64,000 nucleotides of DNA, taken from Escherichia coli (GTDB lineage Bacteria > Pseudomonadota > Gammaproteobacteria > Enterobacterales > Enterobacteriaceae). Where the stretch lies: NCBI RefSeq assembly GCF_003334405.1, contig NZ_QOWM01000017.1; one strand, given 5' to 3'. The first letter of the stretch is position 1. Every line of letters begins with the position of its first letter. The translations under genes and the position numbers were made by a program. Of this stretch, positions 3,623-63,856 are shown in pieces. The notes under the pieces are model-generated. The model worked only from the letters and a program-made list of their open reading frames with translations. It ran no database searches and was not told where the DNA came from.

Positions 3623-4688
3623 GTGTTCCCCGCGCCAGCGGGGATAAACCGAACATTAAATTGCCGTGCTGGATGAATCGCGGGTGTTCCCCGCGCCAGC
3701 GGGGATAAACCCTGGATCAGCTGGTTCAATCGTTTACAGCACTGGTGTTCCCCGCGCCAGCGGGGATAAACCGTCGAAAAACTTCGTCCTGAAAAAATTC
3801 ATCATGTGTTCCCCGCGCCAGCGGGGATAAACCGGCAGTAAATTATTTGACCTCGTTGATAATCCCGTGTTCCCCGCGCCAGCGGGGATAAACCGCCGGT
3901 GCAACTGATATTGATAAACGTCGACTCGTGTTCCCCGCGCCAGCGGGGATAAACCGACACCCGACCGCTAACCGATTTCGTTACAGTAGTGTTCCCCGCG
4001 CCAGCGGGGATAAACCGTGTATCACCGAAAGAATGGTTTGACGCGCAGGGTGTTCCCCGCGCCAGCGGGGATAAACCGACGTCTATCATTTTCAGTACAA
4101 GCTGGGTTTTGTGTTCCCCGCGCCAGCGGGGATAAACCGGACGATCCCGAGATTCACAGAGTTACAACTAAGTGTTCCCCGCGCCAGCGGGGATAAACCG
4201 GAAATTTTCACATGGATTGTAGCCCTGTATATGTGTTCCCCGCGCCAGCGGGGATAAACCGGCCAGGCGGTCGGATTAGGTGCAAATCAAAATGTGTTCC
4301 CCGCGCCAGCGGGGATAAACCGCGCTGGCGGTGCGAGTGCTGGAGGCGCTGAAAGTGTTCCCCGCGCCAGCGGGGATAAACCGCAGGAGACGGCCAGCCG
4401 GAACGGCGGCGGCGTGTGTTCCCCGCGCCAGCGGGGATAAACCGATTGTTATAATTATTTATTGAAATATCATTCCGTGTTCCCCGCGCCAGCGGGGATA
4501 AACCGAATCTATTGTGAATTTGAAATGGTCCAGCACTGTGTTCCCCGCGCCAGCGGGGATAAACCGGGTAAAAACACGGTCTGAACCGACATTCATGTGT
4601 GTTCCCCGCGTCAGCGGGGATAAACCGGGCGCACTGGATGCGATGATGGATATCACTTGGAGTTCCCCCGCCCCTGCGGTAGAACTCC
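3623..4688 (+). CRISPR. Type I-E CRISPR array: 18 x 29-bp repeats, 17 x 32-bp spacers
   Basis: Repeat GTGTTCCCCGCGCCAGCGGGGATAAACCG starts at 3623, 3684, 3745, ... 4599 with exact 61-bp period; repeat 2 ends in C, repeat 17 has C>T (GCGTCAGC), and terminal repeat 4660-4688 (GAGTTCCCCCGCCCCTGCGGTAGAACTCC) is degenerate. Spacers are unique. Confidence 0.97.
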
Positions 4689-25912: not shown

Positions 25913-27991
25913 TTAAATCAATGCCGATTTATCAATTCCCAGCCGCTTCATCCGTGACAGCAGGGTCGTGCGTTTCAGCCCCAGACGTTGCGCAGCGCCT
26001 TTAGGCCCGGCAACCACGCCGTTGGTTTCTTTCAGCACGCGCACAATCAACTGATATTCATCTTCGCCCTCCAGGGCGACAACCGTTGCGGCAGGCGGCG
26101 TTTCAGGTTCCGGTAAAACAATATCTGGCAATGACAGCTGCAGCACGTTACCGCGTGTTAGCAATACCGCGCGCTCAATGACGTTTTCCAGTTCGCGTAC
26201 GTTACCCGGCCACTCCATGTTGCTCAAGGTGCGCAGCGTCTCGGCAGGAATGCTGTCGATATTGCGCCCCAGACGACGGGCAATTTTGAAGGTAAAGGCT
26301 TTCGCCAGCAGCGGAATATCTTCCGGACGCTCGCGTAGTGGCGGCAGGTGAATCGGGAATACGTTCAGGCGGTAATAGAGATCGCTACGGAACTCACGGT
26401 CGGCGACCATTTTTTTCAGATCGCGGTTAGTCGCGGCGATTAGACGCACGTCCGTCTGAATGATTTTGTTGCTGCCGAGACGTTCAAACTCCTGTTCCTG
26501 CAATACACGCAGCAACTTCGGCTGTAACTCCAGTGGCATATCGCCCACTTCGTCGAGGAACAGGGAGCTTTTATCCGCCAGTTCAAAACGACCGATACGC
26601 TGGGCGCTGGCACCGGTAAAAGCCCCACGCTCATGACCAAACAGATCGCTTTCCAGCAATCCGGCAGGCATCGCCGCGCAGTTCATTTTGACCATGCGGC
26701 GATTATTACGCCCACTGAGATTATGGATCGCACGGGCAATCAGCTCTTTACCCGTGCCAGTTTCACCGAGGATCAGCACGGTACTGTCACTTTGCGCCAC
26801 CATTTCAACTTGTTTAAGCACGCTGTACATGGCTTCGCTGCGGCCAATAATCTCGCCAAATTCACTATCAACATTGTTGAGCTGCTCGGTCAGGGCGAGG
26901 TTTTCATCAACCAGCCGTTCTTTCAGACGATGGATTTCCTGATAGGCGAGGGCGTTATCGACAGCGATTGCCACACGTTCGGCAATCTGGCGCAGTAAAT
27001 TCAGATTGGTAGTGGTAAACACTTTCTCTTCGCATTGCGCCAGTTTCAGCACGCCCAGCATGGTGTCGCCAGACATCAGCGGTAACAGGCACAAGGTTTG
27101 AATCTGGTTGCCCCAGGTGTCGAACAACATGCGTTCATAGGGGGCTAAATCGTCCCGCTCGTGGAGATTGATCAGCAGCATCTCTTTACTTTTGAACACG
27201 CGTTCGGTGAGGGTTCCGGCTTCATCGACTTCGCTCTGTTCGTGGGCGGGATGCTGTTTATCAAGATAGTGAGTGGAGTAGATGTTGAGTTTGTTTTTAC
27301 GGTGGCTGCGTAAGACGATACTGATATCGTCAATGTCGAAATAGTAATGGATTTCTTTGGCGACTTCGCTGACCAGTTCGTCCATATCCAGGCGGGAAAG
27401 CACCGCGTTGGTGATGGCGACCAGGATGCGGAAGTTATCGCGTTCCCGGCATAACAACTCATAGTCGACATTGTTAACGACGCGGCTCTGGATTTGTTCG
27501 GTGACGACAGAAACGATCTGCGTAAATGTTTGCAGACGATTGAACTCTTTTTCGCTCCAGGGGCGATCGTCATAACGAATAAATTCACAGCCACCAAAAA
27601 TATGCCCTTCCGCCGCCAGTGGCATCAGGCAATAGTGACCAAATTTTGGGTATAGCCCACCTGCGTCCAGCTGCGGCCAGGTTTCACAAAATTCTTCGTA
27701 ACTGCAATGCAGCGTATCAGGGCGCGACAAAATGCTGCGTACCGGACCGTGTGCCAGAACAGTTTCGTCTTCATATTTAATGGGGGTGTCTTTTTCACGC
27801 GACGCGTAATAAGACGCACGTTGAGTCTGCGCTTGCCACAACACAATAGCCGCGTTGTCGGCGAGCGCAGAACGCTTTACCAGTTGCGAAAGAGCCTCAC
27901 ACAGCGAGGCCAGATCGGGCTGCTGCAATAGTGTCCGAGTGATGTCGAACAACCCTTGTTGTCCGAGATCACTCATCGGTGTATATGACAT
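25913..27991 (-). CDS. fhlA: Formate hydrogenlyase transcriptional activator FhlA (sigma54 enhancer-binding protein)
   Basis: Track ORF 25913..28027; start moved to the ATG giving MSYTPMSDLGQQGLF (692 aa); AAA+ motifs GETGTGKE and GAFTGA, C-terminal HTH. Confidence 0.95.
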   Translation of the reverse strand: MSYTPMSDLGQQGLFDITRTLLQQPDLASLCEALSQLVKRSALADNAAIVLWQAQTQRASYYASREKDTPIKYEDETVLAHGPVRSILSRPDTLHCSYEEFCETWPQLDAGGLYPKFGHYCLMPLAAEGHIFGGCEFIRYDDRPWSEKEFNRLQTFTQIVSVVTEQIQSRVVNNVDYELLCRERDNFRILVAITNAVLSRLDMDELVSEVAKEIHYYFDIDDISIVLRSHRKNKLNIYSTHYLDKQHPAHEQSEVDEAGTLTERVFKSKEMLLINLHERDDLAPYERMLFDTWGNQIQTLCLLPLMSGDTMLGVLKLAQCEEKVFTTTNLNLLRQIAERVAIAVDNALAYQEIHRLKERLVDENLALTEQLNNVDSEFGEIIGRSEAMYSVLKQVEMVAQSDSTVLILGETGTGKELIARAIHNLSGRNNRRMVKMNCAAMPAGLLESDLFGHERGAFTGASAQRIGRFELADKSSLFLDEVGDMPLELQPKLLRVLQEQEFERLGSNKIIQTDVRLIAATNRDLKKMVADREFRSDLYYRLNVFPIHLPPLRERPEDIPLLAKAFTFKIARRLGRNIDSIPAETLRTLSNMEWPGNVRELENVIERAVLLTRGNVLQLSLPDIVLPEPETPPAATVVALEGEDEYQLIVRVLKETNGVVAGPKGAAQRLGLKRTTLLSRMKRLGIDKSALI

Positions 27992-30465: not shown

Positions 30466-31328
30466 CGCTGTGTCTCCAGCCAGTTCAGCCACTGGTCCAT
30501 CCCTTCGCCGCTGGTGGCGGAAATAAGGATGATTTCAATTTCTGGATTGACTTCGCGGGCGCAGGCGATGCACTTTTCAACGTCAAAGTTGAGATACGGC
30601 AACAGGTCAACTTTGTTGAGCAGCATCAGCGAGGCGGCGGCAAACATATGCGGATATTTCAGCGGTTTGTCTTCACCTTCGGTAACGGAAAGCACCGCCA
30701 CTTTGTGTTTTTCACCGAGATCGAAGCTGGCCGGGCATACGAGGTTGCCAACGTTTTCGATAAACAGAATACCGTTATCGTCCAGTGGCAGACGCGGTGC
30801 GGCGTCGGCAATCATCTGTGCGTCAAGATGGCAGCCTTTACCGGTGTTCACCTGAATCGCTGGTGTGCCGGTAGCGCGAATGCGTGCGGCATCGTTCACG
30901 GTTTGCTGGTCGCCTTCAATAACTGCGCACGGAACGCTGTCTTTCAGGCGCATTAGGGTTTCCGTCAGCAGGGTGGTTTTACCGGAACCAGGGCTGGAAA
31001 CCAGGTTGAGCACCAGTTGCTTGCGGGCAGCAAAGCGCGCGCGGTTGCGTTCAGCCAGACGGTTATTTTTGTCCAGCACGTCAATTTCGACTTCCAGCAT
31101 CCGACGCTGGCTCATGCCCGGTGCGTGAGTGCCCGCTTCGCCATGACCGTAATGCAGGTCGCCTTCTTCAGTCTGGCTGGGGGTAAATTCAGGCGCTTTA
31201 ATGCCGGTGATTTTCATCTTCGGGCGTGCCGCCGGGGCAAATGGCGCGCTACGAAACGCGGAATGAGGGTTATGTTCATCACCCTCGATATACAGGTTGC
31301 CTTCACCGCAACCGCATGTTGTACACAT
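30456..31328 (-). CDS. hypB: Hydrogenase nickel incorporation GTPase HypB
   Basis: Track ORF 290 aa; N-terminal [10 protein letters not shown] metal-binding motif, GTPase P-loop GSGKTT. Confidence 0.95.
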
Positions 31329-31331
31329 CGC

Positions 31332-31682
31332 TCACTCCTGGTCTATTTCTATCCGCCGAATCTGTAAACCGTCGTCTGCCACAATCTGCAGCATGTCACC
31401 ATGACACTGTGGACAGCGGCGGACGCGCTGGGTCAGTAGCGTCACATACTGTTGGCATGTTTCACACCAGCATTCGGCCTCTTGTTCTTCGAGGTGCAGT
31501 TTACAACCTTCCGCCACGCTGCCGCGGCAAACCAGATCAAAACAAAAGGCAAGAGAGCTGGTTTCGACACAAGAAAATGCGCCAATTTTGAGCCAGACCC
31601 CAGTTACGCGTTTTGCGCCGTGTTTTGCGGCCTGCTGTTCGATCAATTCCAGTGCCCGTTGGCAGAGGGTTATTTCGTGCAT
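31332..31682 (-). CDS. hypA: Hydrogenase nickel insertion protein HypA (116 aa)
   Basis: Track ORF 31332..31694; start moved to MHEITLCQ (conserved HypA N-terminus); zinc-finger CxxC...CxxC. Confidence 0.9.
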   Translation of the reverse strand: MHEITLCQRALELIEQQAAKHGAKRVTGVWLKIGAFSCVETSSLAFCFDLVCRGSVAEGCKLHLEEQEAECWCETCQQYVTLLTQRVRRCPQCHGDMLQIVADDGLQIRRIEIDQE

Positions 31683-31712
31683 ATCGCCTCCCATTAACTA
31701 TTGCCAGCTACA

Positions 31713-31729
31713 AGCAATAATTGTGCCAG
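31713..31729 (-). promoter_or_regulatory. Candidate sigma54 (-24/-12) promoter of the hyp operon
   Basis: Minus-strand reading CTGGCACAATTATTGCT (GG-N10-GC) ~35 bp upstream of the hypA start. Confidence 0.5.
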
Positions 31730-31750
31730 TGTTGATTATCCCTGCGGTGA

Positions 31751-31800
31751 ATAATGTCGATGATGTCGAAATGACACGTCGACACGGCGACGAAATTCAT
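31751..31800. promoter_or_regulatory. Candidate FhlA upstream activating sequence in the hyp-hyc divergent region
   Basis: ATAATGTCGATGATGTCGAAATGACACGTCGACACGGCGACGAAATTCAT; shares TGTCGATGA / TGTCGAAATGACA elements with two other sites in the window. Confidence 0.5.
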
Positions 31801-31840
31801 CTTTAGCTTAAAAATCTCTTTAATAACAATAAATTAAAAG

Positions 31841-31858
31841 TTGGCACAAAAAATGCTT
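31841..31858 (+). promoter_or_regulatory. Candidate sigma54 (-24/-12) promoter of the hyc operon
   Basis: TTGGCACAAAAAATGCTT (GG-N10-GC) ~40 bp upstream of the hycA start. Confidence 0.55.
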
Positions 31859-31893
31859 AAAGCTGGCATCTCTGTTAAACGGGTAACCTGACA

Positions 31894-32355
31894 ATGACTA
31901 TTTGGGAAATAAGCGAGAAAGCCGATTACATCGCACAGCGGCATCGTCGCCTACAGGACCAGTGGCACATCTACTGCAATTCGCTGGTTCAGGGGATCAC
32001 GTTATCGAAAGCGCGCCTGCATCACGCCATGAGCTGCGCGCCGGACAAAGAACTCTGTTTCGTCCTTTTTGAACATTTTCGCATTTACGTCACCCTGGCG
32101 GATGGCTTTAACAGCCACACCATCGAGTATTACGTCGAAACAAAAGATGGCGAAGACAAACAGCGGATTGCGCAGGCGCAACTGAGCATTGACGGCATGA
32201 TTGATGGCAAGGTCAACATCCGCGATCGCGAACAGGTTCTGGAACACTATCTCGAAAAAATCGCTGGCGTTTACGACAGCTTATACACCGCTATTGAAAA
32301 CAATGTGCCGGTGAATTTAAGCCAACTGGTAAAGGGACAAAGCCCGGCAGCATGA
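31894..32355 (+). CDS. hycA: Formate hydrogenlyase regulatory protein HycA
   Basis: Track ORF 153 aa; first gene of the hyc operon. Confidence 0.95.
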   Translation: MTIWEISEKADYIAQRHRRLQDQWHIYCNSLVQGITLSKARLHHAMSCAPDKELCFVLFEHFRIYVTLADGFNSHTIEYYVETKDGEDKQRIAQAQLSIDGMIDGKVNIRDREQVLEHYLEKIAGVYDSLYTAIENNVPVNLSQLVKGQSPAA

Positions 32356-32403
32356 GCTGAGGCTTTGCCCGTTTTGCAGGCGTTACGCCTGTTTGGGGAT
32401 GGG

Positions 32404-32460
32404 CGTGTCGATGAGTGTCGAAAATGACATTTCATCGGCATGTTTTCGTCAAAAATGACA
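32404..32460. promoter_or_regulatory. Candidate second FhlA UAS in the hycA-hycB spacer
   Basis: CGTGTCGATGAGTGTCGAAAATGACATTTCATCGGCATGTTTTCGTCAAAAATGACA, repeating the TGTCGATGA / TGTCGAAAATGACA elements. Confidence 0.5.
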
Positions 32461-32479
32461 ATCACCTGAGGAATGCCTG

Positions 32480-33091
32480 GTGAATCGTTTTGTAATTGCT
32501 GACTCCACGCTCTGTATCGGCTGCCACACTTGTGAGGCCGCCTGTTCAGAGACGCATCGCCAGCACGGCCTGCAATCAATGCCGCGCCTGAGAGTGATGC
32601 TGAATGAAAAAGAATCTGCGCCGCAGCTCTGTCACCACTGTGAAGATGCACCCTGCGCGGTGGTCTGCCCGGTTAACGCCATCACCCGCGTCGATGGGGC
32701 CGTGCAGTTGAATGAAAGCCTGTGCGTAAGCTGCAAGCTGTGCGGCATCGCCTGCCCGTTTGGCGCAATTGAATTTTCCGGCAGCCGTCCGCTGGATATT
32801 CCGGCAAACGCCAATACCCCGAAAGCGCCACCGGCACCGCCTGCTCCGGCGCGTGTCAGCACATTGCTTGACTGGGTGCCAGGTATTCGCGCGATCGCCG
32901 TCAAATGTGACCTTTGTAGCTTTGATGAACAAGGTCCGGCCTGCGTGCGGATGTGCCCGACTAAAGCCCTGCATCTGGTGGATAACACCGATATCGCCCG
33001 CGTCAGCAAACGTAAGCGTGAGCTGACCTTTAACACGGACTTTGGCGATCTCACCTTGTTTCAGCAGGCTCAAAGTGGAGAGGCTAAATGA
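32480..33091 (+). CDS. hycB: Formate hydrogenlyase Fe-S subunit HycB (ferredoxin-like)
   Basis: Track ORF 203 aa; multiple CxxCxxCxxxCP clusters. Confidence 0.95.
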   Translation: MNRFVIADSTLCIGCHTCEAACSETHRQHGLQSMPRLRVMLNEKESAPQLCHHCEDAPCAVVCPVNAITRVDGAVQLNESLCVSCKLCGIACPFGAIEFSGSRPLDIPANANTPKAPPAPPAPARVSTLLDWVPGIRAIAVKCDLCSFDEQGPACVRMCPTKALHLVDNTDIARVSKRKRELTFNTDFGDLTLFQQAQSGEAK

Positions 33092-34914
33092 GCGCAATTT
33101 CCCTGATCAATAGCGGCGTGGCGTGGTTTGTCGCCGCCGCTGTTCTGGCATTTCTCTTTTCTTTTCAAAAAGCGTTAAGTGGCTGGATAGCTGGAATTGG
33201 CGGCGCGGTTGGTAGTCTGTATACGGCAGCCGCGGGCTTCACTGTACTGACTGGCGCGGTTGGCGTGAGCGGTGCGCTGTCGCTGGTAAGCTACGATGTG
33301 CAAATCTCTCCGCTTAACGCGATTTGGCTGATTACGCTCGGTCTGTGCGGTCTGTTTGTCAGCCTCTACAACATTGACTGGCATCGCCACGCGCAGGTGA
33401 AGTGCAACGGCTTGCAGATCAATATGTTGATGGCTGCCGCCGTCTGCGCCGTCATTGCCAGCAACCTCGGCATGTTCGTGGTAATGGCCGAAATCATGGC
33501 CCTGTGCGCGGTGTTCCTCACCAGCAACAGCAAAGAGGGCAAACTGTGGTTTGCGCTGGGGCGTCTTGGCACTCTGCTGCTGGCGATTGCTTGCTGGCTG
33601 CTGTGGCAGCGTTACGGCACGCTGGATCTGCGCCTGCTGGATATGCGTATGCAACAGCTGCCGCTCGGTTCCGATATCTGGCTGCTCGGAGTGATTGGCT
33701 TTGGCCTGCTGGCCGGGATTATTCCGCTGCACGGCTGGGTGCCGCAGGCACATGCGAACGCCTCTGCGCCAGCTGCCGCGTTGTTTTCTACGGTAGTCAT
33801 GAAAATTGGCCTGCTGGGCATTTTAACCCTGTCACTGCTGGGCGGTAATGCACCGCTGTGGTGGGGGATCGCGCTGCTGGTGCTCGGCATGATCACCGCG
33901 TTTGTCGGTGGTCTGTATGCGCTGGTGGAGCACAACATCCAGCGCCTGCTGGCTTACCACACCCTGGAAAATATCGGCATCATCCTGCTGGGGCTGGGCG
34001 CTGGCGTAACGGGTATCGCGCTCGAACAACCGGCGCTGATTGCTCTTGGCCTGGTCGGTGGTCTGTACCATCTGCTTAACCATAGCCTGTTCAAAAGCGT
34101 ACTGTTCCTCGGGGCGGGGAGCGTCTGGTTCCGTACCGGTCATCGCGATATCGAAAAACTCGGTGGTATTGGCAAGAAAATGCCGGTTATCTCCATCGCC
34201 ATGTTAGTCGGGCTGATGGCAATGGCTGCGCTGCCGCCGCTGAATGGTTTTGCCGGGGAATGGGTTATCTATCAATCATTTTTCAAACTGAGCAATAGTG
34301 GCGCGTTTGTTGCCCGTCTGCTGGGGCCGCTGCTCGCTGTGGGGCTGGCAATTACCGGTGCGCTGGCGGTGATGTGTATGGCGAAAGTCTATGGCGTCAC
34401 GTTCCTCGGCGCGCCGCGCACCAAAGAAGCCGAAAACGCCACCTGTGCGCCGCTCCTGATGAGCGTAAGCGTAGTGGCACTGGCGATTTGCTGCGTAATT
34501 GGCGGTGTTGCTGCGCCGTGGCTACTGCCGATGCTCTCTGCTGCTGTACCTCTGCCGCTGGAGCCTGCTAACACCACCGTTTCTCAACCGATGATCACGT
34601 TGCTGCTGATTGCCTGCCCGCTGCTGCCATTCATCATTATGGCGATTTGCAAAGGCGATCGTTTGCCATCGCGTTCCCGCGGTGCGGCCTGGGTGTGCGG
34701 TTACGACCACGAAAAATCAATGGTGATTACCGCTCACGGTTTTGCCATGCCGGTGAAACAGGCGTTTGCGCCGGTGCTGAAACTACGCAAATGGCTGAAT
34801 CCGGTGTCTCTGGTGCCGGGCTGGCAGTGCGAGGGGAGTGCGTTGCTGTTCCGCCGGATGGCGCTGGTTGAACTGGCGGTACTGGTGGTGATTATTGTTT
34901 CACGAGGAGCCTGA
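33088..34914 (+). CDS. hycC: Formate hydrogenlyase membrane subunit HycC (NuoL/antiporter-like)
   Basis: Track ORF 608 aa; polytopic membrane protein. Confidence 0.95.
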   Translation: MSAISLINSGVAWFVAAAVLAFLFSFQKALSGWIAGIGGAVGSLYTAAAGFTVLTGAVGVSGALSLVSYDVQISPLNAIWLITLGLCGLFVSLYNIDWHRHAQVKCNGLQINMLMAAAVCAVIASNLGMFVVMAEIMALCAVFLTSNSKEGKLWFALGRLGTLLLAIACWLLWQRYGTLDLRLLDMRMQQLPLGSDIWLLGVIGFGLLAGIIPLHGWVPQAHANASAPAAALFSTVVMKIGLLGILTLSLLGGNAPLWWGIALLVLGMITAFVGGLYALVEHNIQRLLAYHTLENIGIILLGLGAGVTGIALEQPALIALGLVGGLYHLLNHSLFKSVLFLGAGSVWFRTGHRDIEKLGGIGKKMPVISIAMLVGLMAMAALPPLNGFAGEWVIYQSFFKLSNSGAFVARLLGPLLAVGLAITGALAVMCMAKVYGVTFLGAPRTKEAENATCAPLLMSVSVVALAICCVIGGVAAPWLLPMLSAAVPLPLEPANTTVSQPMITLLLIACPLLPFIIMAICKGDRLPSRSRGAAWVCGYDHEKSMVITAHGFAMPVKQAFAPVLKLRKWLNPVSLVPGWQCEGSALLFRRMALVELAVLVVIIVSRGA

Positions 34915-43061: not shown

Positions 43062-44075
43062 ATGATGACGACGATGCTGGAAGTGGCGAAGCGCGCCGGG
43101 GTTTCAAAAGCGACCGTTTCCCGCGTGCTTTCAGGTAATGGCTACGTCAGCCAGGAGACTAAAGATCGCGTGTTTCAGGCGGTAGAAGAGAGCGGTTACC
43201 GTCCAAACTTGCTGGCGCGCAATCTGTCGGCGAAGAGTACTCAGACGCTGGGGCTGGTAGTGACCAACACGCTTTACCACGGCATTTATTTTAGTGAATT
43301 ACTCTTTCATGCCGCGCGAATGGCGGAAGAGAAAGGGCGGCAGTTGCTATTGGCAGATGGTAAACACAGCGCAGAAGAAGAGCGCCAGGCGATTCAGTAT
43401 CTGCTGGATCTGCGCTGCGACGCGATCATGATTTACCCGCGTTTTTTAAGCGTGGATGAGATCGATGACATCATTGACGCGCACAGTCAGCCGATAATGG
43501 TGCTTAATCGCCGCCTGCGCAAAAACAGCAGCCATAGCGTCTGGTGCGATCATAAACAGACCAGTTTTAACGCCGTGGCAGAGTTGATAAACGCCGGGCA
43601 TCAGGAGATTGCTTTCCTTACCGGCTCGATGGATTCCCCCACCAGCATTGAACGTCTTGCCGGGTATAAAGACGCGCTGGCGCAGCATGGTATTGCGCTC
43701 AATGAAAAACTTATCGCTAACGGTAAATGGACGCCTGCCAGCGGGGCCGAAGGGGTAGAAATGTTGCTCGAACGTGGGGCTAAATTTAGCGCGTTAGTTG
43801 CCAGTAACGACGATATGGCGATAGGTGCGATGAAAGCGTTACACGAGCGCGGCGTAGCGGTGCCAGAGCAGGTGTCAGTTATCGGATTCGATGATATCGC
43901 TATTGCCCCCTACACCGTTCCGGCGCTCTCCAGCGTAAAAATTCCGGTGACTGAGATGATTCAGGAAATTATTGGACGGCTGATTTTTATGCTCGATGGC
44001 GGGGATTTCTCACCGCCGAAAACCTTCAGCGGAAAACTGATCCGCCGCGACTCACTCATTGCTCCTTCGCGATAA
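43062..44075 (+). CDS. ascG: LacI/GalR-family repressor of the asc operon
   Basis: Track ORF 42999..44075; start moved to ATG 43062/43065 (MMTTMLEVAKRAGVSKATVSRVL HTH), ~337 aa; full-length. Confidence 0.9.
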   Translation: MMTTMLEVAKRAGVSKATVSRVLSGNGYVSQETKDRVFQAVEESGYRPNLLARNLSAKSTQTLGLVVTNTLYHGIYFSELLFHAARMAEEKGRQLLLADGKHSAEEERQAIQYLLDLRCDAIMIYPRFLSVDEIDDIIDAHSQPIMVLNRRLRKNSSHSVWCDHKQTSFNAVAELINAGHQEIAFLTGSMDSPTSIERLAGYKDALAQHGIALNEKLIANGKWTPASGAEGVEMLLERGAKFSALVASNDDMAIGAMKALHERGVAVPEQVSVIGFDDIAIAPYTVPALSSVKIPVTEMIQEIIGRLIFMLDGGDFSPPKTFSGKLIRRDSLIAPSR

Positions 44076-44076
44076 A

Positions 44077-44118
44077 CATTGTCATCACATGTCATCGTCA
44101 CTAGTGTCGATGACATCG
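44077..44118. promoter_or_regulatory. FhlA-UAS-like motif upstream of hydN-hypF
   Basis: CATTGTCATCACATGTCATCGTCACTAGTGTCGATGACATCG contains the same TGTCGATGA and TGACAT elements seen at the two hyp/hyc sites. Confidence 0.4.
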
Positions 44119-44223
44119 TTTTTCCTGCATTACAGAAATTAATTTCCTTAAATAACAGTAAATTAAAAACTGGCATGATTTGTGAATGTATCGGCGCATT
44201 AACTGTCATTGCTGGAGAATTTG

Positions 44224-44751
44224 ATGAACCGTTTCATCATTGCTGACGCGAGTAAATGTATTGGTTGCCGTACCTGTGAAGTAGCGTGCGTGGTTTCTCA
44301 TCAGGAAAATCAGGACTGTGCATCGCTGACCCCGGAAACTTTTTTACCGCGTATCCATGTCATTAAAGGTGTGAACATTTCCACGGCGACAGTTTGCCGT
44401 CAGTGTGAAGATGCACCGTGCGCTAACGTCTGCCCGAATGGTGCTATCAGCCGTGATAAAGGGTTTGTTCATGTGATGCAGGAACGTTGCATTGGTTGCA
44501 AAACCTGCGTTGTGGCTTGCCCGTATGGTGCGATGGAAGTGGTGGTACGTCCGGTGATCCGCAACAGCGGCGCGGGTCTGAATGTACGGGCTGACAAAGC
44601 CGAAGCCAATAAATGCGACCTGTGCAACCATCGTGAAGACGGCCCGGCGTGTATGGCGGCTTGCCCGACTCATGCGCTGATTTGTGTCGATCGTAATAAA
44701 CTTGAACAACTGAGCGCAGAAAAACGCCGCCGTACGGCGCTGATGTTCTAA
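44224..44751 (+). CDS. hydN: Electron transport Fe-S protein HydN (4Fe-4S ferredoxin-type)
   Basis: Track ORF 44209..44751; start moved to [15 protein letters not shown] (175 aa); paralogous to HycB. Confidence 0.9.
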
Positions 44752-44903: not shown

Positions 44904-47156
44904 ATGGCAAAAAACACATCTTGCGGTGTCCAACTGCGTATTCGTGGCAAAGTGCAGGGCGTCGGTTTTCGTCCGTTTGTCTGGCAGCTGGCACAGCAAT
45001 TAAATCTTCACGGCGATGTCTGTAATGACGGCGATGGCGTAGAAGTCCGGCTGCGGGAAGACCCGGAAACGTTTCTTGTTCAATTGTATCAGCACTGCCC
45101 GCCGCTGGCGCGTATTGATAGCGTCGAGCGTGAGCCGTTTATCTGGTCACAACTGCCCACCGAGTTCACTATACGCCAGAGCACAGGCGGCACCATGAAT
45201 ACGCAAATTGTTCCCGATGCCGCTACTTGCCCTGCTTGCCTTGCCGAAATGAATACCCCAGGCGAACGGCGTTATCGTTATCCGTTTATCAACTGTACCC
45301 ACTGCGGCCCGCGTTTCACCATTATTCGCGCCATGCCTTACGACCGCCCGTTTACCGTGATGGCGGCGTTTCCGCTATGTCCGGCCTGTGACAAAGAGTA
45401 CCGTGACCCGCTCGATCGTCGCTTCCACGCCCAGCCGGTGGCCTGCCCGGAGTGTGGCCCGCATCTTGAATGGGTAAGTCATGGTGAACATGCGGAACAA
45501 GAGGCGGCATTACAGGCAGCTATCGCACAGTTAAAAATGGGCAAAATTGTCGCCATCAAAGGGATTGGCGGATTTCATCTTGCCTGCGATGCACGTAACA
45601 GTAACGCGGTGGCGACACTTCGGGCGCGCAAACATCGCCCGGCGAAACCGCTGGCGGTCATGTTGCCAGTGGCTGACGGTTTACCAGACGCTGCGCGCCA
45701 GTTGCTTACCACGCCCGCCGCGCCGATTGTGCTGGTGGATAAAAAATACGTTCCTGAGCTTTGTGATGATATCGCCCCTGACCTTAACGAAGTCGGGGTA
45801 ATGTTGCCTGCGAACCCGCTCCAGCATTTGCTGTTACAGGAACTGCAATGCCCGCTGGTGATGACCTCCGGCAACCTGAGCGGTAAACCACCAGCTATCA
45901 GCAACGAACAGGCGCTGGCGGATTTGCAGGGCATTGCCGACGGATTCTTGATACATAACCGCGACATCGTGCAGCGGATGGATGATTCGGTGGTGCGCGA
46001 AAGCGGCGAAATGCTGCGCCGTTCGCGGGGGTATGTGCCGGATGCGCTGGCTTTGCCTCCGGGCTTTAAAAATGTTCCGCCTGTGCTGTGTCTCGGCGCG
46101 GATCTGAAAAATACCTTCTGCCTGGTGCGCGGTGAACAAGCGGTGTTGAGTCAGCATCTGGGCGATTTAAGTGACGATGGCATCCAGATGCAGTGGCGCG
46201 AAGCGTTACGCCTGATGCAAAACATCTACGATTTTACCCCGCAATACGTTGTGCATGACGCGCATCCGGGCTATGTCTCCAGCCAGTGGGCGCGTGAAAT
46301 GAATCTGCCGACGCAAACGGTACTGCATCATCATGCCCATGCAGCGGCGTGTCTGGCAGAGCATCAGTGGCCGCTGGATGGCGGTGATGTCATTGCTTTG
46401 ACGCTCGACGGTATCGGTATGGGGGAGAACGGCGCTTTGTGGGGCGGCGAGTGCCTGCGGGTGAACTATCGCGAATGTGAGCACCTGGGCGGCTTGCCTG
46501 CAGTGGCGCTTCCGGGTGGCGATTTGGCAGCGAAGCAGCCGTGGCGAAACCTGCTGGCGCAGTGCCTGCGCTTTGTGCCGGAGTGGCAGAATTACTCTGA
46601 AACAGCAAGTGTGCAACAGCAAAACTGGAGCGTGCTGGCGCGGGCCATTGAGCGTGGAATTAACGCGCCGCTGGCGTCATCGTGTGGGCGTTTTTTCGAT
46701 GCAGTGGCGGCGGCACTGGGCTGTGCGCCAGCCACGTTAAGTTATGAAGGTGAAGCGGCTTGTGCTCTGGAGGCGCTCGCAGCCTCATGCCACGGAGTGA
46801 CGCATCCGGTGACAATGCCGCGGGTGGACAATCAACTGGATCTCGCCACTTTCTGGCAGCAGTGGCTGAACTGGCAGGCACCGGTTAATCAACGCGCGTG
46901 GGCGTTTCATGATGCGCTGGCGCAGGGTTTTGCCGCGTTGATGCGTGAGCAGGCCACGATGCGTGGTATCACTACGCTGGTATTTAGCGGCGGGGTTATT
47001 CATAACCGTTTGCTGCGTGCACGTCTGGCGCATTATCTCGCTGATTTCACATTGCTCTTTCCACAGAGTTTACCGGCGGGTGATGGCGGTTTGTCTCTGG
47101 GGCAGGGGGTTATTGCTGCGGCGCGTTGGTTAGCGGGTGAAGTCCAGAACGGATAA
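44904..47156 (+). CDS. hypF: [NiFe]-hydrogenase maturation carbamoyltransferase HypF
   Basis: Track ORF 44832..47156; start moved to [15 protein letters not shown] (750 aa); acylphosphatase domain, two CxxC zinc fingers, YrdC and Kae1-like domains. Confidence 0.95.
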
Positions 47157-49898: not shown

Positions 49899-49916
49899 AT
49901 TGCAGATTGCGTGCCA
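49899..49916 (-). promoter_or_regulatory. Candidate sigma54 promoter of norVW
   Basis: Minus-strand reading CTGGCACGCAATCTGCA (GG-N10-GC) ~45 bp upstream of the norV start. Confidence 0.6.
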
Positions 49917-49971
49917 GTTTTTTATCTGATTGTTTTTACTCTATAAATAAAATTATGCCCATTAATGAGTA

Positions 49972-63683: not shown

Positions 63684-63776
63684 GGTGAGGTGGCCGAGAG
63701 GCTGAAGGCGCTCCCCTGCTAAGGGAGTATGCGGTCAAAAGCTGCATCCGGGGTTCGAATCCCCGCCTCACCGCCA
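63684..63776 (+). tRNA. serV: tRNA-Ser (anticodon GCU)
   Basis: GGTGAGGTGGCCGAGAGGCTGAAGGCGCTCCCCTGCTAAGGGAG...GGGGTTCGAATCCCCGCCTCACCGCCA; long variable arm, encoded CCA. Confidence 0.95.
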
Positions 63777-63779
63777 TTT

Positions 63780-63856
63780 GCATCCGTAGCTCAGCTGGAT
63801 AGAGTACTCGGCTACGAACCGAGCGGTCGGAGGTTCGAATCCTCCCGGATGCACCA
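63780..63856 (+). tRNA. argV: tRNA-Arg (anticodon ACG)
   Basis: GCATCCGTAGCTCAGCTGGATAGAGTACTCGGCTACGAACCGAGCGGTCGGAGGTTCGAATCCTCCCGGATGCACCA; 3 bp after tRNA-Ser. Confidence 0.95.

Follow-up and report, generated by a model that had tools for sequence, protein, structure and literature searches.

In the standard account of how formate hydrogenlyase is regulated in Escherichia coli, FhlA enhancers have had a place since 1989-2000. The upstream activating sequence (UAS) of fdhF was reportedly described by Birkmann and Boeck in 1989 and those of hyc and hyp by Lutz et al. in 1990 and by Schlensog et al. and Hopper et al. in 1994, while hydN-hypF is said to have been treated by Maier et al. in 1996 and the FhlA footprints by Leonhartsberger et al. 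in 2000. Regulon tables and reviews, which cite Lutz 1990, Schlensog 1994, Maier 1996 and Leonhartsberger 2000, give hycABCDEFGHI, hypABCDE, hydN-hypF and fdhF as FhlA- and sigma54-dependent operons, and a 16-mer FhlA consensus, CATTTCGTACGAAATG, is quoted in a review. A full-text literature search, beyond whose reach the primary footprinting papers lay, yielded nothing specific on FhlA UASs or on the sequences of the sites.

The NorR enhancer at norVW is built on a similar plan, with three GT-N7-AC sites upstream of a sigma54 promoter (PMC2831303). It shares with the FhlA elements the use of repeated short sites, a GAF-domain sigma54-dependent activator, a position about 100 bp upstream of the -24/-12 elements and an adjacent regulator gene; nevertheless, the recognition sequence and the activator are others, and NorR sites serve one promoter, whereas FhlA sites serve four. 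The hyf operon (hydrogenase 4; HyfR/FhlA-dependent) is also comparable in its ChIP-seq-confirmed sigma54 promoter, the HycB/HydN paralogue downstream and a TGTCGA palindrome, but it has a single core hexamer and no cluster, and resembles only a non-conserved distal portion of the first site described below.

Here, we analysed a 64-kb stretch of E. coli DNA (hereafter, the window), in which a sequence-only reading had noticed a motif shared by the hypA-hycA, hycA-hycB and ascG-hydN spacers (sites 1, 2 and 3, respectively) and had matched it to the known arrangement of FhlA activating sequences. The operon set, the adjacent sigma54 promoters, the nearby fhlA gene and the conservation of the clusters bear this match out, and we consider, with a probability of about 0.9, that the three clusters represent FhlA-bound upstream activating sequences (enhancers) of the E. 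coli formate regulon. The organism, the loci and the operons are those of the known FhlA UASs, as is the layout from enhancer through IHF-like block to sigma54 promoter; nothing substantive differs, the review consensus CATTTCGTACGAAATG agreeing at the half-site level only. The elements are already known, and our description of the unit, its orientation and phasing and the hydN palindrome is a restatement that adds no new element; because these enhancers have long stood in the standard model, it carries little weight as a discovery. Its interest is that of a positive control, in which a tool-free reader recovered a genuine regulatory motif from raw sequence. Moreover, such a compact account of the element could serve as a starting point for predicting the regulon in other Enterobacteriaceae or for designing promoters in hydrogen production.

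Locus identity and gene organization

The window is E. coli K-12 DNA spanning the fhlA-hypEDCBA / hycABCDEFGHI / ascBFG / hydN-hypF region, and positions 31300-33100 are 100% identical to E. coli K-12 MG1655 and were found in 5,426/5,426 complete E. coli genomes. Gene coordinates were taken from the RefSeq annotation of the identical MG1655 record. The gene for the cognate enhancer-binding activator is present in this genome: fhlA (25913-27991, minus strand) stands at the end of the hyp operon, about 4 kb from the motif sites. The same strand carries hypEDCB, then hypA (31332-31682), and, farther along, ascB and ascF. On the plus strand are hycA (31894-32355), hycB (32480-33091), ascG (43065-44075), hydN (44224-44751) and hypF (starting at 44904), with hycC-I extending as far as 39756. 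The spacers that hold the sites measure 211 bp (site 1, hypA-hycA), 124 bp (site 2, hycA-hycB) and 148 bp (site 3, ascG-hydN).

Recognition units in the window

Motif scans covered the window together with 80 related loci and three further stretches of E. coli DNA. As had been read from the raw sequence, the word TGTCGATGA recurs on the plus strand at all three sites (31755, 32406 and 44105); it has six copies in 64 kb against 0.51 expected, a count reached by 0/100 shuffles. The remaining three copies (23997, in mutS; 39130, in hycH; and 56940) stand alone, away from the three spacers. A second word, TGTCGAAA(A)TGACA, which had been credited to every site, was found at sites 1 and 2, as TGTCGAAATGACA (31764) and TGTCGAAAATGACA (32416), with two window matches against 0.01 expected; it is missing from site 3, so that only TGTCGATGA is common to the three.

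Both words are variants of a single unit, TGWCGA (TGWCGAWRA as a 9-mer), which occurs in either orientation. TGWCGA/TCGWCA hexamers number three at site 1 (TGTCGA at 31755 and 31764, and TCGACA, in the opposite orientation, at 31779), three at site 2 (32406, 32416 and 32446) and two at site 3 (44095 and 44105). For the 9-mer, the window has 16 matches where 4.4 are expected, and six of these fall within the approximately 150 bp of the three sites. Furthermore, at least three hexamers within 60 bp are found only at sites 1 and 2 in the 64-kb window, against an expectation of 0.15 from 200 first-order Markov simulations. At only about 11-12 bits per unit, lone matches elsewhere are uninformative, and it is clustering alone, not the matrix score of a single unit, that discriminates sites in 64 kb. 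A position weight matrix derived from non-Escherichia orthologues was tried and set aside; it brought almost no gain over the hexamer, and single sites are not resolvable with it in 64 kb.

The consensus CATTTCGTACGAAATG, taken as quoted in the review, gave best matches with 5-7 mismatches as a contiguous 16-mer in all four E. coli regions, and on account of this poor fit it was not adopted as a model. Its half-site CGAAATG/CATTTCG is nonetheless recognizable, being exact at 31767-31773 and near-exact at the other regions.

Sites 1 and 3 and their sigma54 promoters

The core of UAS-1 (31755-31784) reads TGTCGATGA-TGTCGAAATGACA-CGTCGACA and forms a conserved island in 81 distinct spacer sequences. 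The sequence-only reading had extended this site to a distal part (31785-31800, CGGCGACGAAATTCAT) that is Escherichia-specific, other genera having diverged to about 10-60% identity with E. coli. On one side of the core lies the hyp sigma54 promoter (31713-31729, minus strand; CTGGCACAATTATTGCT, with -24 GG and -12 GC), an exact TGGCAYN5TTGCW match at 31713-31728 directed towards hypA that equals ChIP-seq site OS28 (hypA) letter for letter (PMC4591121) and is conserved in 80/80 loci. On the other side, the hyc sigma54 promoter (31841-31857, plus strand; TTGGCACAAAAAATGCT) is directed towards hycA, has, at 31842-31857, one mismatch to the same consensus, equals ChIP-seq site OS27 (hycA) letter for letter (PMC4591121) and is likewise conserved across loci. 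The -24 elements lie 58-88 bp (hyc) and 28-57 bp (hyp) from the core; with transcription starts inferred at about 12 nt beyond the -12 element, the centre of the core would fall near -100 for hyc and -66 for hyp.

Inside hycA, 70 bp into the coding region, there is a further sigma54-like sequence, TGGCACATCTACTGCA (31963-31978, plus strand), one mismatch away from TGGCAYN5TTGCW. In its main text, PMC4591121 names hycA once only, for the intergenic OS27, and mentions no intragenic hycA site.

UAS-3 (44080-44116) consists of TGTCATCA and a 28-bp palindrome, ATGTCATCGTCACT/AGTGTCGATGACAT, with its core at 44089-44116 and units TCATCGTCA (44092) and TGTCGATGA (44105). When the hydN-upstream regions of eight species of Escherichia, Salmonella, Citrobacter and Intestinirhabdus were compared, the core GTCATCGTCACtnGTG(T/A)CGATGAC was invariant in all eight, and the flanks were divergent. 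The core is 55-83 bp from the hydN -24 element, with a centre near -94 relative to the inferred hydN start. The hydN sigma54 promoter (44170-44186, plus strand; CTGGCATGATTTGTGAA) has, at 44171-44186, two mismatches to TGGCAYN5TTGCW, is identical letter for letter to ChIP-seq site OS26 (hydN; PMC4591121) and is conserved in the eight species. Its -12 element (44183-44186) is non-canonical in 8/8 of them, reading GTGA or GTGT against the consensus TTGC, although ChIP-seq shows sigma54 binding. The ChIP-seq sites in PMC4591121 also include fdhF and norV, and gSELEX peaks have been placed in the same spacers, including ascG-hydN.

Directly before the -24 element, the hyc and hydN upstream regions share a near-identical AT-rich, IHF-like block: TTAATAACAATAAATTAAAAG (31820-31840, plus strand), between UAS-1 and the hyc promoter, and TTAAATAACAGTAAATTAAAAA (44148-44169, plus strand), upstream of the hydN promoter. 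One-mismatch matches to the IHF consensus WATCAANNNNTTR were found at 31823-31835 (hyc) and 44151-44165 (hydN); at these two E. coli promoters there was no exact match, and other genera carry the exact consensus (AATCAATnnnTTAA) at the homologous position.

All three clusters lie within upstream or looping distance of formate-regulon sigma54 promoters. The narrower spacing proposed for them, 60-150 bp from a sigma54 promoter or operon start, holds for sites 1 and 3; at site 2 it applies only to the start of hycB, 20 bp beyond, and this gene is no operon start.

The hycA-hycB site

UAS-2 (32405-32459) comprises four 9-mer units arranged as two interleaved inverted pairs, the first formed by TGTCGATGA (32406) with TCATCGGCA (32432), and the second by TGTCGAAAA (32416) with TTTTCGTCA (32443), followed by AAAATGACA. 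Across 72 distinct sequences, TCGTCAAAAATGAC (32446-32459) is invariant or at least 90% identical, and the TT at 32444-32445 is also at least 90% conserved. The site covers the stretch 20-75 bp from the hycB start codon, and on the plus strand from here to 34299 no sigma54-like match (at most two mismatches to TGGCAYN5TTGCW) was found. The nearest confirmed promoters are those of hyc, about 550 bp away, and hyp, about 700-730 bp away. Site 2 has no nearby promoter and lies inside the hyc transcription unit, so that its sequence does not itself point to a target; it presumably acts on the hyp promoter some 700 bp off, an assignment for which Lutz (1990), Schlensog (1994), Hopper (1994) and Leonhartsberger (2000) are said to be the basis.

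The position of site 2 within the hyc message raises the alternative that its palindromes act additionally, or instead, in hyc mRNA, as hairpins affecting the stability of the message or the translation of hycB. Folding of the spacer RNA gives z = -4.0 and a long imperfect hairpin (32404-32441); the outer pairs of the 2a stem show 32 double-changed cells against 14.7 in shuffles, with 0/500 shuffles as high, and slid controls fall below the 2a stem in double changes. In addition, the distance from the beginning of TCGTCAAAAATGAC to the hycB start codon is exactly 34 bp in 67/80 loci, a spacing tighter than that of the other units. Against an RNA role, the units also occur at sites 1 and 3 and at fdhF, upstream of -24 elements and so presumably untranscribed, and Enterobacter-type spacers have lost the TCATCGGCA arm and kept every hexamer. 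The four inner pairs and helix 2 are invariant or change on one side, giving no covariation signal, and the shuffle control can be beaten by related sequences without any structure. An Rfam scan recognized no RNA family at any of the three sites. We regard a role in mRNA as unlikely, and then only as a function added to that of the enhancer; a bifunctional site 2 (32405-32459), being both DNA enhancer and mRNA hairpin module with its nested palindromes and the invariant TCGTCAAAAATGAC, is equally doubtful. If it did exist, such a module, together with the terminator-like hairpin after hycA, would fix how strongly the anti-activator HycA is expressed relative to the structural genes hycB-I.

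The latter hairpin is GC-rich, is followed by a T-run and lies directly after the hycA stop codon (32376-32397; CAGGCGTTACGCCTG TTTGGGG). In Salmonella, Citrobacter and Intestinirhabdus (L010-L027), hairpins of other sequence occupy the same position and are followed by TTT(T)AGGG, and genera with a short hycA-hycB spacer are without a post-hycA hairpin. It could be a partial terminator or stabilizer that sets the hycA : hycB-I ratio. A simple terminator and sigma70-promoter scan of 31600-32600 returned nothing beyond the shuffle expectation.

Conservation across Enterobacteriaceae

A HycA search gave 80 loci (1.44 Mb) from Escherichia, Salmonella, Citrobacter, Enterobacter, Klebsiella, Raoultella, Kluyvera, Kosakonia, Lelliottia and others. 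The hypA / hycA-hycB arrangement is retained in 80/80, and a full-length FhlA homologue is present in 70/80. Clusters of at least three hexamers occupy the hypA-hycA spacer in 74/80 loci, hexamer clusters occupy the hycA-hycB spacer in 78/80, and these two spacers account for 152 of the 159 hexamer clusters in the 1.44 Mb. The conserved islands of the hypA-hycA spacer comprise the hypA ribosome-binding site, the hyp and hyc sigma54 promoters, the AT-rich block and positions 31755-31780, and those of the hycA-hycB spacer are GTGTCGA, GTGTCGA...GACA and TCGTCAAAAATGAC. Over 72-81 distinct sequences, conservation is at least 90-100% in the motif blocks and falls to 10-50% in the flanks, which points to stronger purifying selection on the sites than on the non-coding DNA around them. 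The W of TGWCGA is T or A according to genus, and the other five positions of the hexamer are fixed.

The spacing between units is also constrained. At site 2, the first and second hexamers are 10 bp apart in 76/79 loci, and the distance from the second hexamer to TCGTCA is bimodal (17-21 or 29-30 bp). The divergent hyp and hyc -24 elements stand 91, 101-102 or 113-115 bp apart. Spacings vary in steps of about 10-11 bp, and in Enterobacter-type spacers the deletion of the TCATCGGCA arm removes about one helical turn with all hexamers kept. Such indels of about one turn, which spare all units, are as expected for protein sites on one helix face.

These data bear directly on whether the words might recur by chance, or be a functionless relic of a paralogous promoter duplication, given that hycB, hydN and hyfA are paralogues. 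The 39% protein identity between hydN and hycB and the AT-rich block common to the hyc and hydN upstream regions would fit a relic; however, the enrichment far exceeds that of shuffles, the blocks are invariant across genera whose flanking spacer has diverged past alignment, and indels keep the helical phase. By this enrichment and conservation, chance or a relic is effectively refuted.

Upstream regions of fdhF and hyf

The sequence-only reading expected its motif upstream of fdhF as well. Neither exact word, TGTCGATGA or TGTCGAAA(A)TGACA, occurs upstream of fdhF in NC_000913.3, but a degenerate hexamer cluster does: TCGTCA, TGACGA and TCGTCA fall within 38 bp in the stretch that precedes the -24 element by about 60-100 bp, and the region also holds the 9-mer TTTTCGTCA, as at site 2. 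A matrix made from non-Escherichia hyc/hyp spacers only gave three high-scoring fdhF units in 32 bp; the score of each is reached at 71 or fewer of 127,976 window positions, with about 0.26 expected in the region (P of about 2e-3). The motif is present upstream of fdhF, but it needs a looser statement than the one first given. At the relaxed level of the hexamer or 9-mer, the recognition units are common to the members of the regulon, fdhF included.

The fdhF orthologues of other enterobacteria (L084-L088) all retain the sigma54 promoter and GCCGTCAC upstream, and TTTTTCGTCAG is retained in 3/4 distinct promoter sequences (L086-L088), being degenerate in L084/L085. Enterobacterial fdhF-like genes were seen in two contexts. 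In L084-L088, they have a sigma54 promoter and FhlA-type units, beside a divergent response-regulator gene. In L089-L094, they stand directly behind a xanthine/uracil-permease gene and an ORF of 38-66 codons (no ORF in L093), and no sigma54 promoter was found at these loci. About half of the fdhF-like loci (L089-L094), with this paralogous context and without a sigma54 promoter, were dropped from the fdhF footprint. Due to the selenocysteine TGA codon, fdhF-like genes are called as 139-codon fragments, except for a Klebsiella copy (L086), for which an upstream start gave a call of 158 codons.

Upstream of hyfA, there is one TGTCGA within the palindrome CGACACGGGTGTCG, about 90 bp upstream of the -24 element. 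A hyfA-upstream palindrome, CGACACGGGTGTCGAAT (NC_000913.3, L095 730-750), resembles the non-conserved distal half of site 1 (GTCGACACGGCGACGAAAT, 31778-31796). In this context, the units could be supposed to belong to another regulator of hydrogen metabolism (HyfR, ModE or NarL/NarP) and not to FhlA. HyfR is listed beside FhlA among sigma54 enhancer proteins of one family, which makes cross-recognition plausible, and the TGTCGA in the hyfA palindrome would agree with this; yet hyfA has a single unit only, and the operons that bear clusters, hyc, hyp, hydN and fdhF, coincide exactly with those ascribed to FhlA, so that we find another regulator highly improbable. Together with the neighbouring fhlA gene, this operon set makes FhlA enhancers the best explanation for the clusters.

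Proposed mode of action

On the FhlA reading, an enhancer would consist of two to four units (core TGWCGA, extended TGWCGAWRA) in both orientations and spaced by whole helical turns. FhlA oligomers presumably bind these phased units, and IHF would bind the hyc and hydN blocks. At the hyc, hyp and hydN promoters, DNA looping would deliver FhlA to closed complexes of sigma54-RNA polymerase, probably with the help of IHF, which would bend the intervening AT-rich block; ATP hydrolysis by FhlA would then open the promoter. The hycA-hycB enhancer presumably loops in the same manner to the distant hyp promoter.

Other features of the window

Positions 3623-4627 hold a CRISPR array with 17 copies of GTGTTCCCCGCGCCAGCGGGGATAAACCG (0-1 mismatch) at a 61-bp period, the repeat being that of E. 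coli type I-E. Two adjacent tRNA genes (63684-63853, plus strand) are the sole Rfam matches in the window at gathering threshold. Finally, the norV sigma54 promoter, CTGGCACGCAATCTGCA (49901-49917, minus strand), is identical to ChIP-seq site OS25 (PMC4591121), and the NorR enhancer region should lie just upstream of it, between norV and norR.
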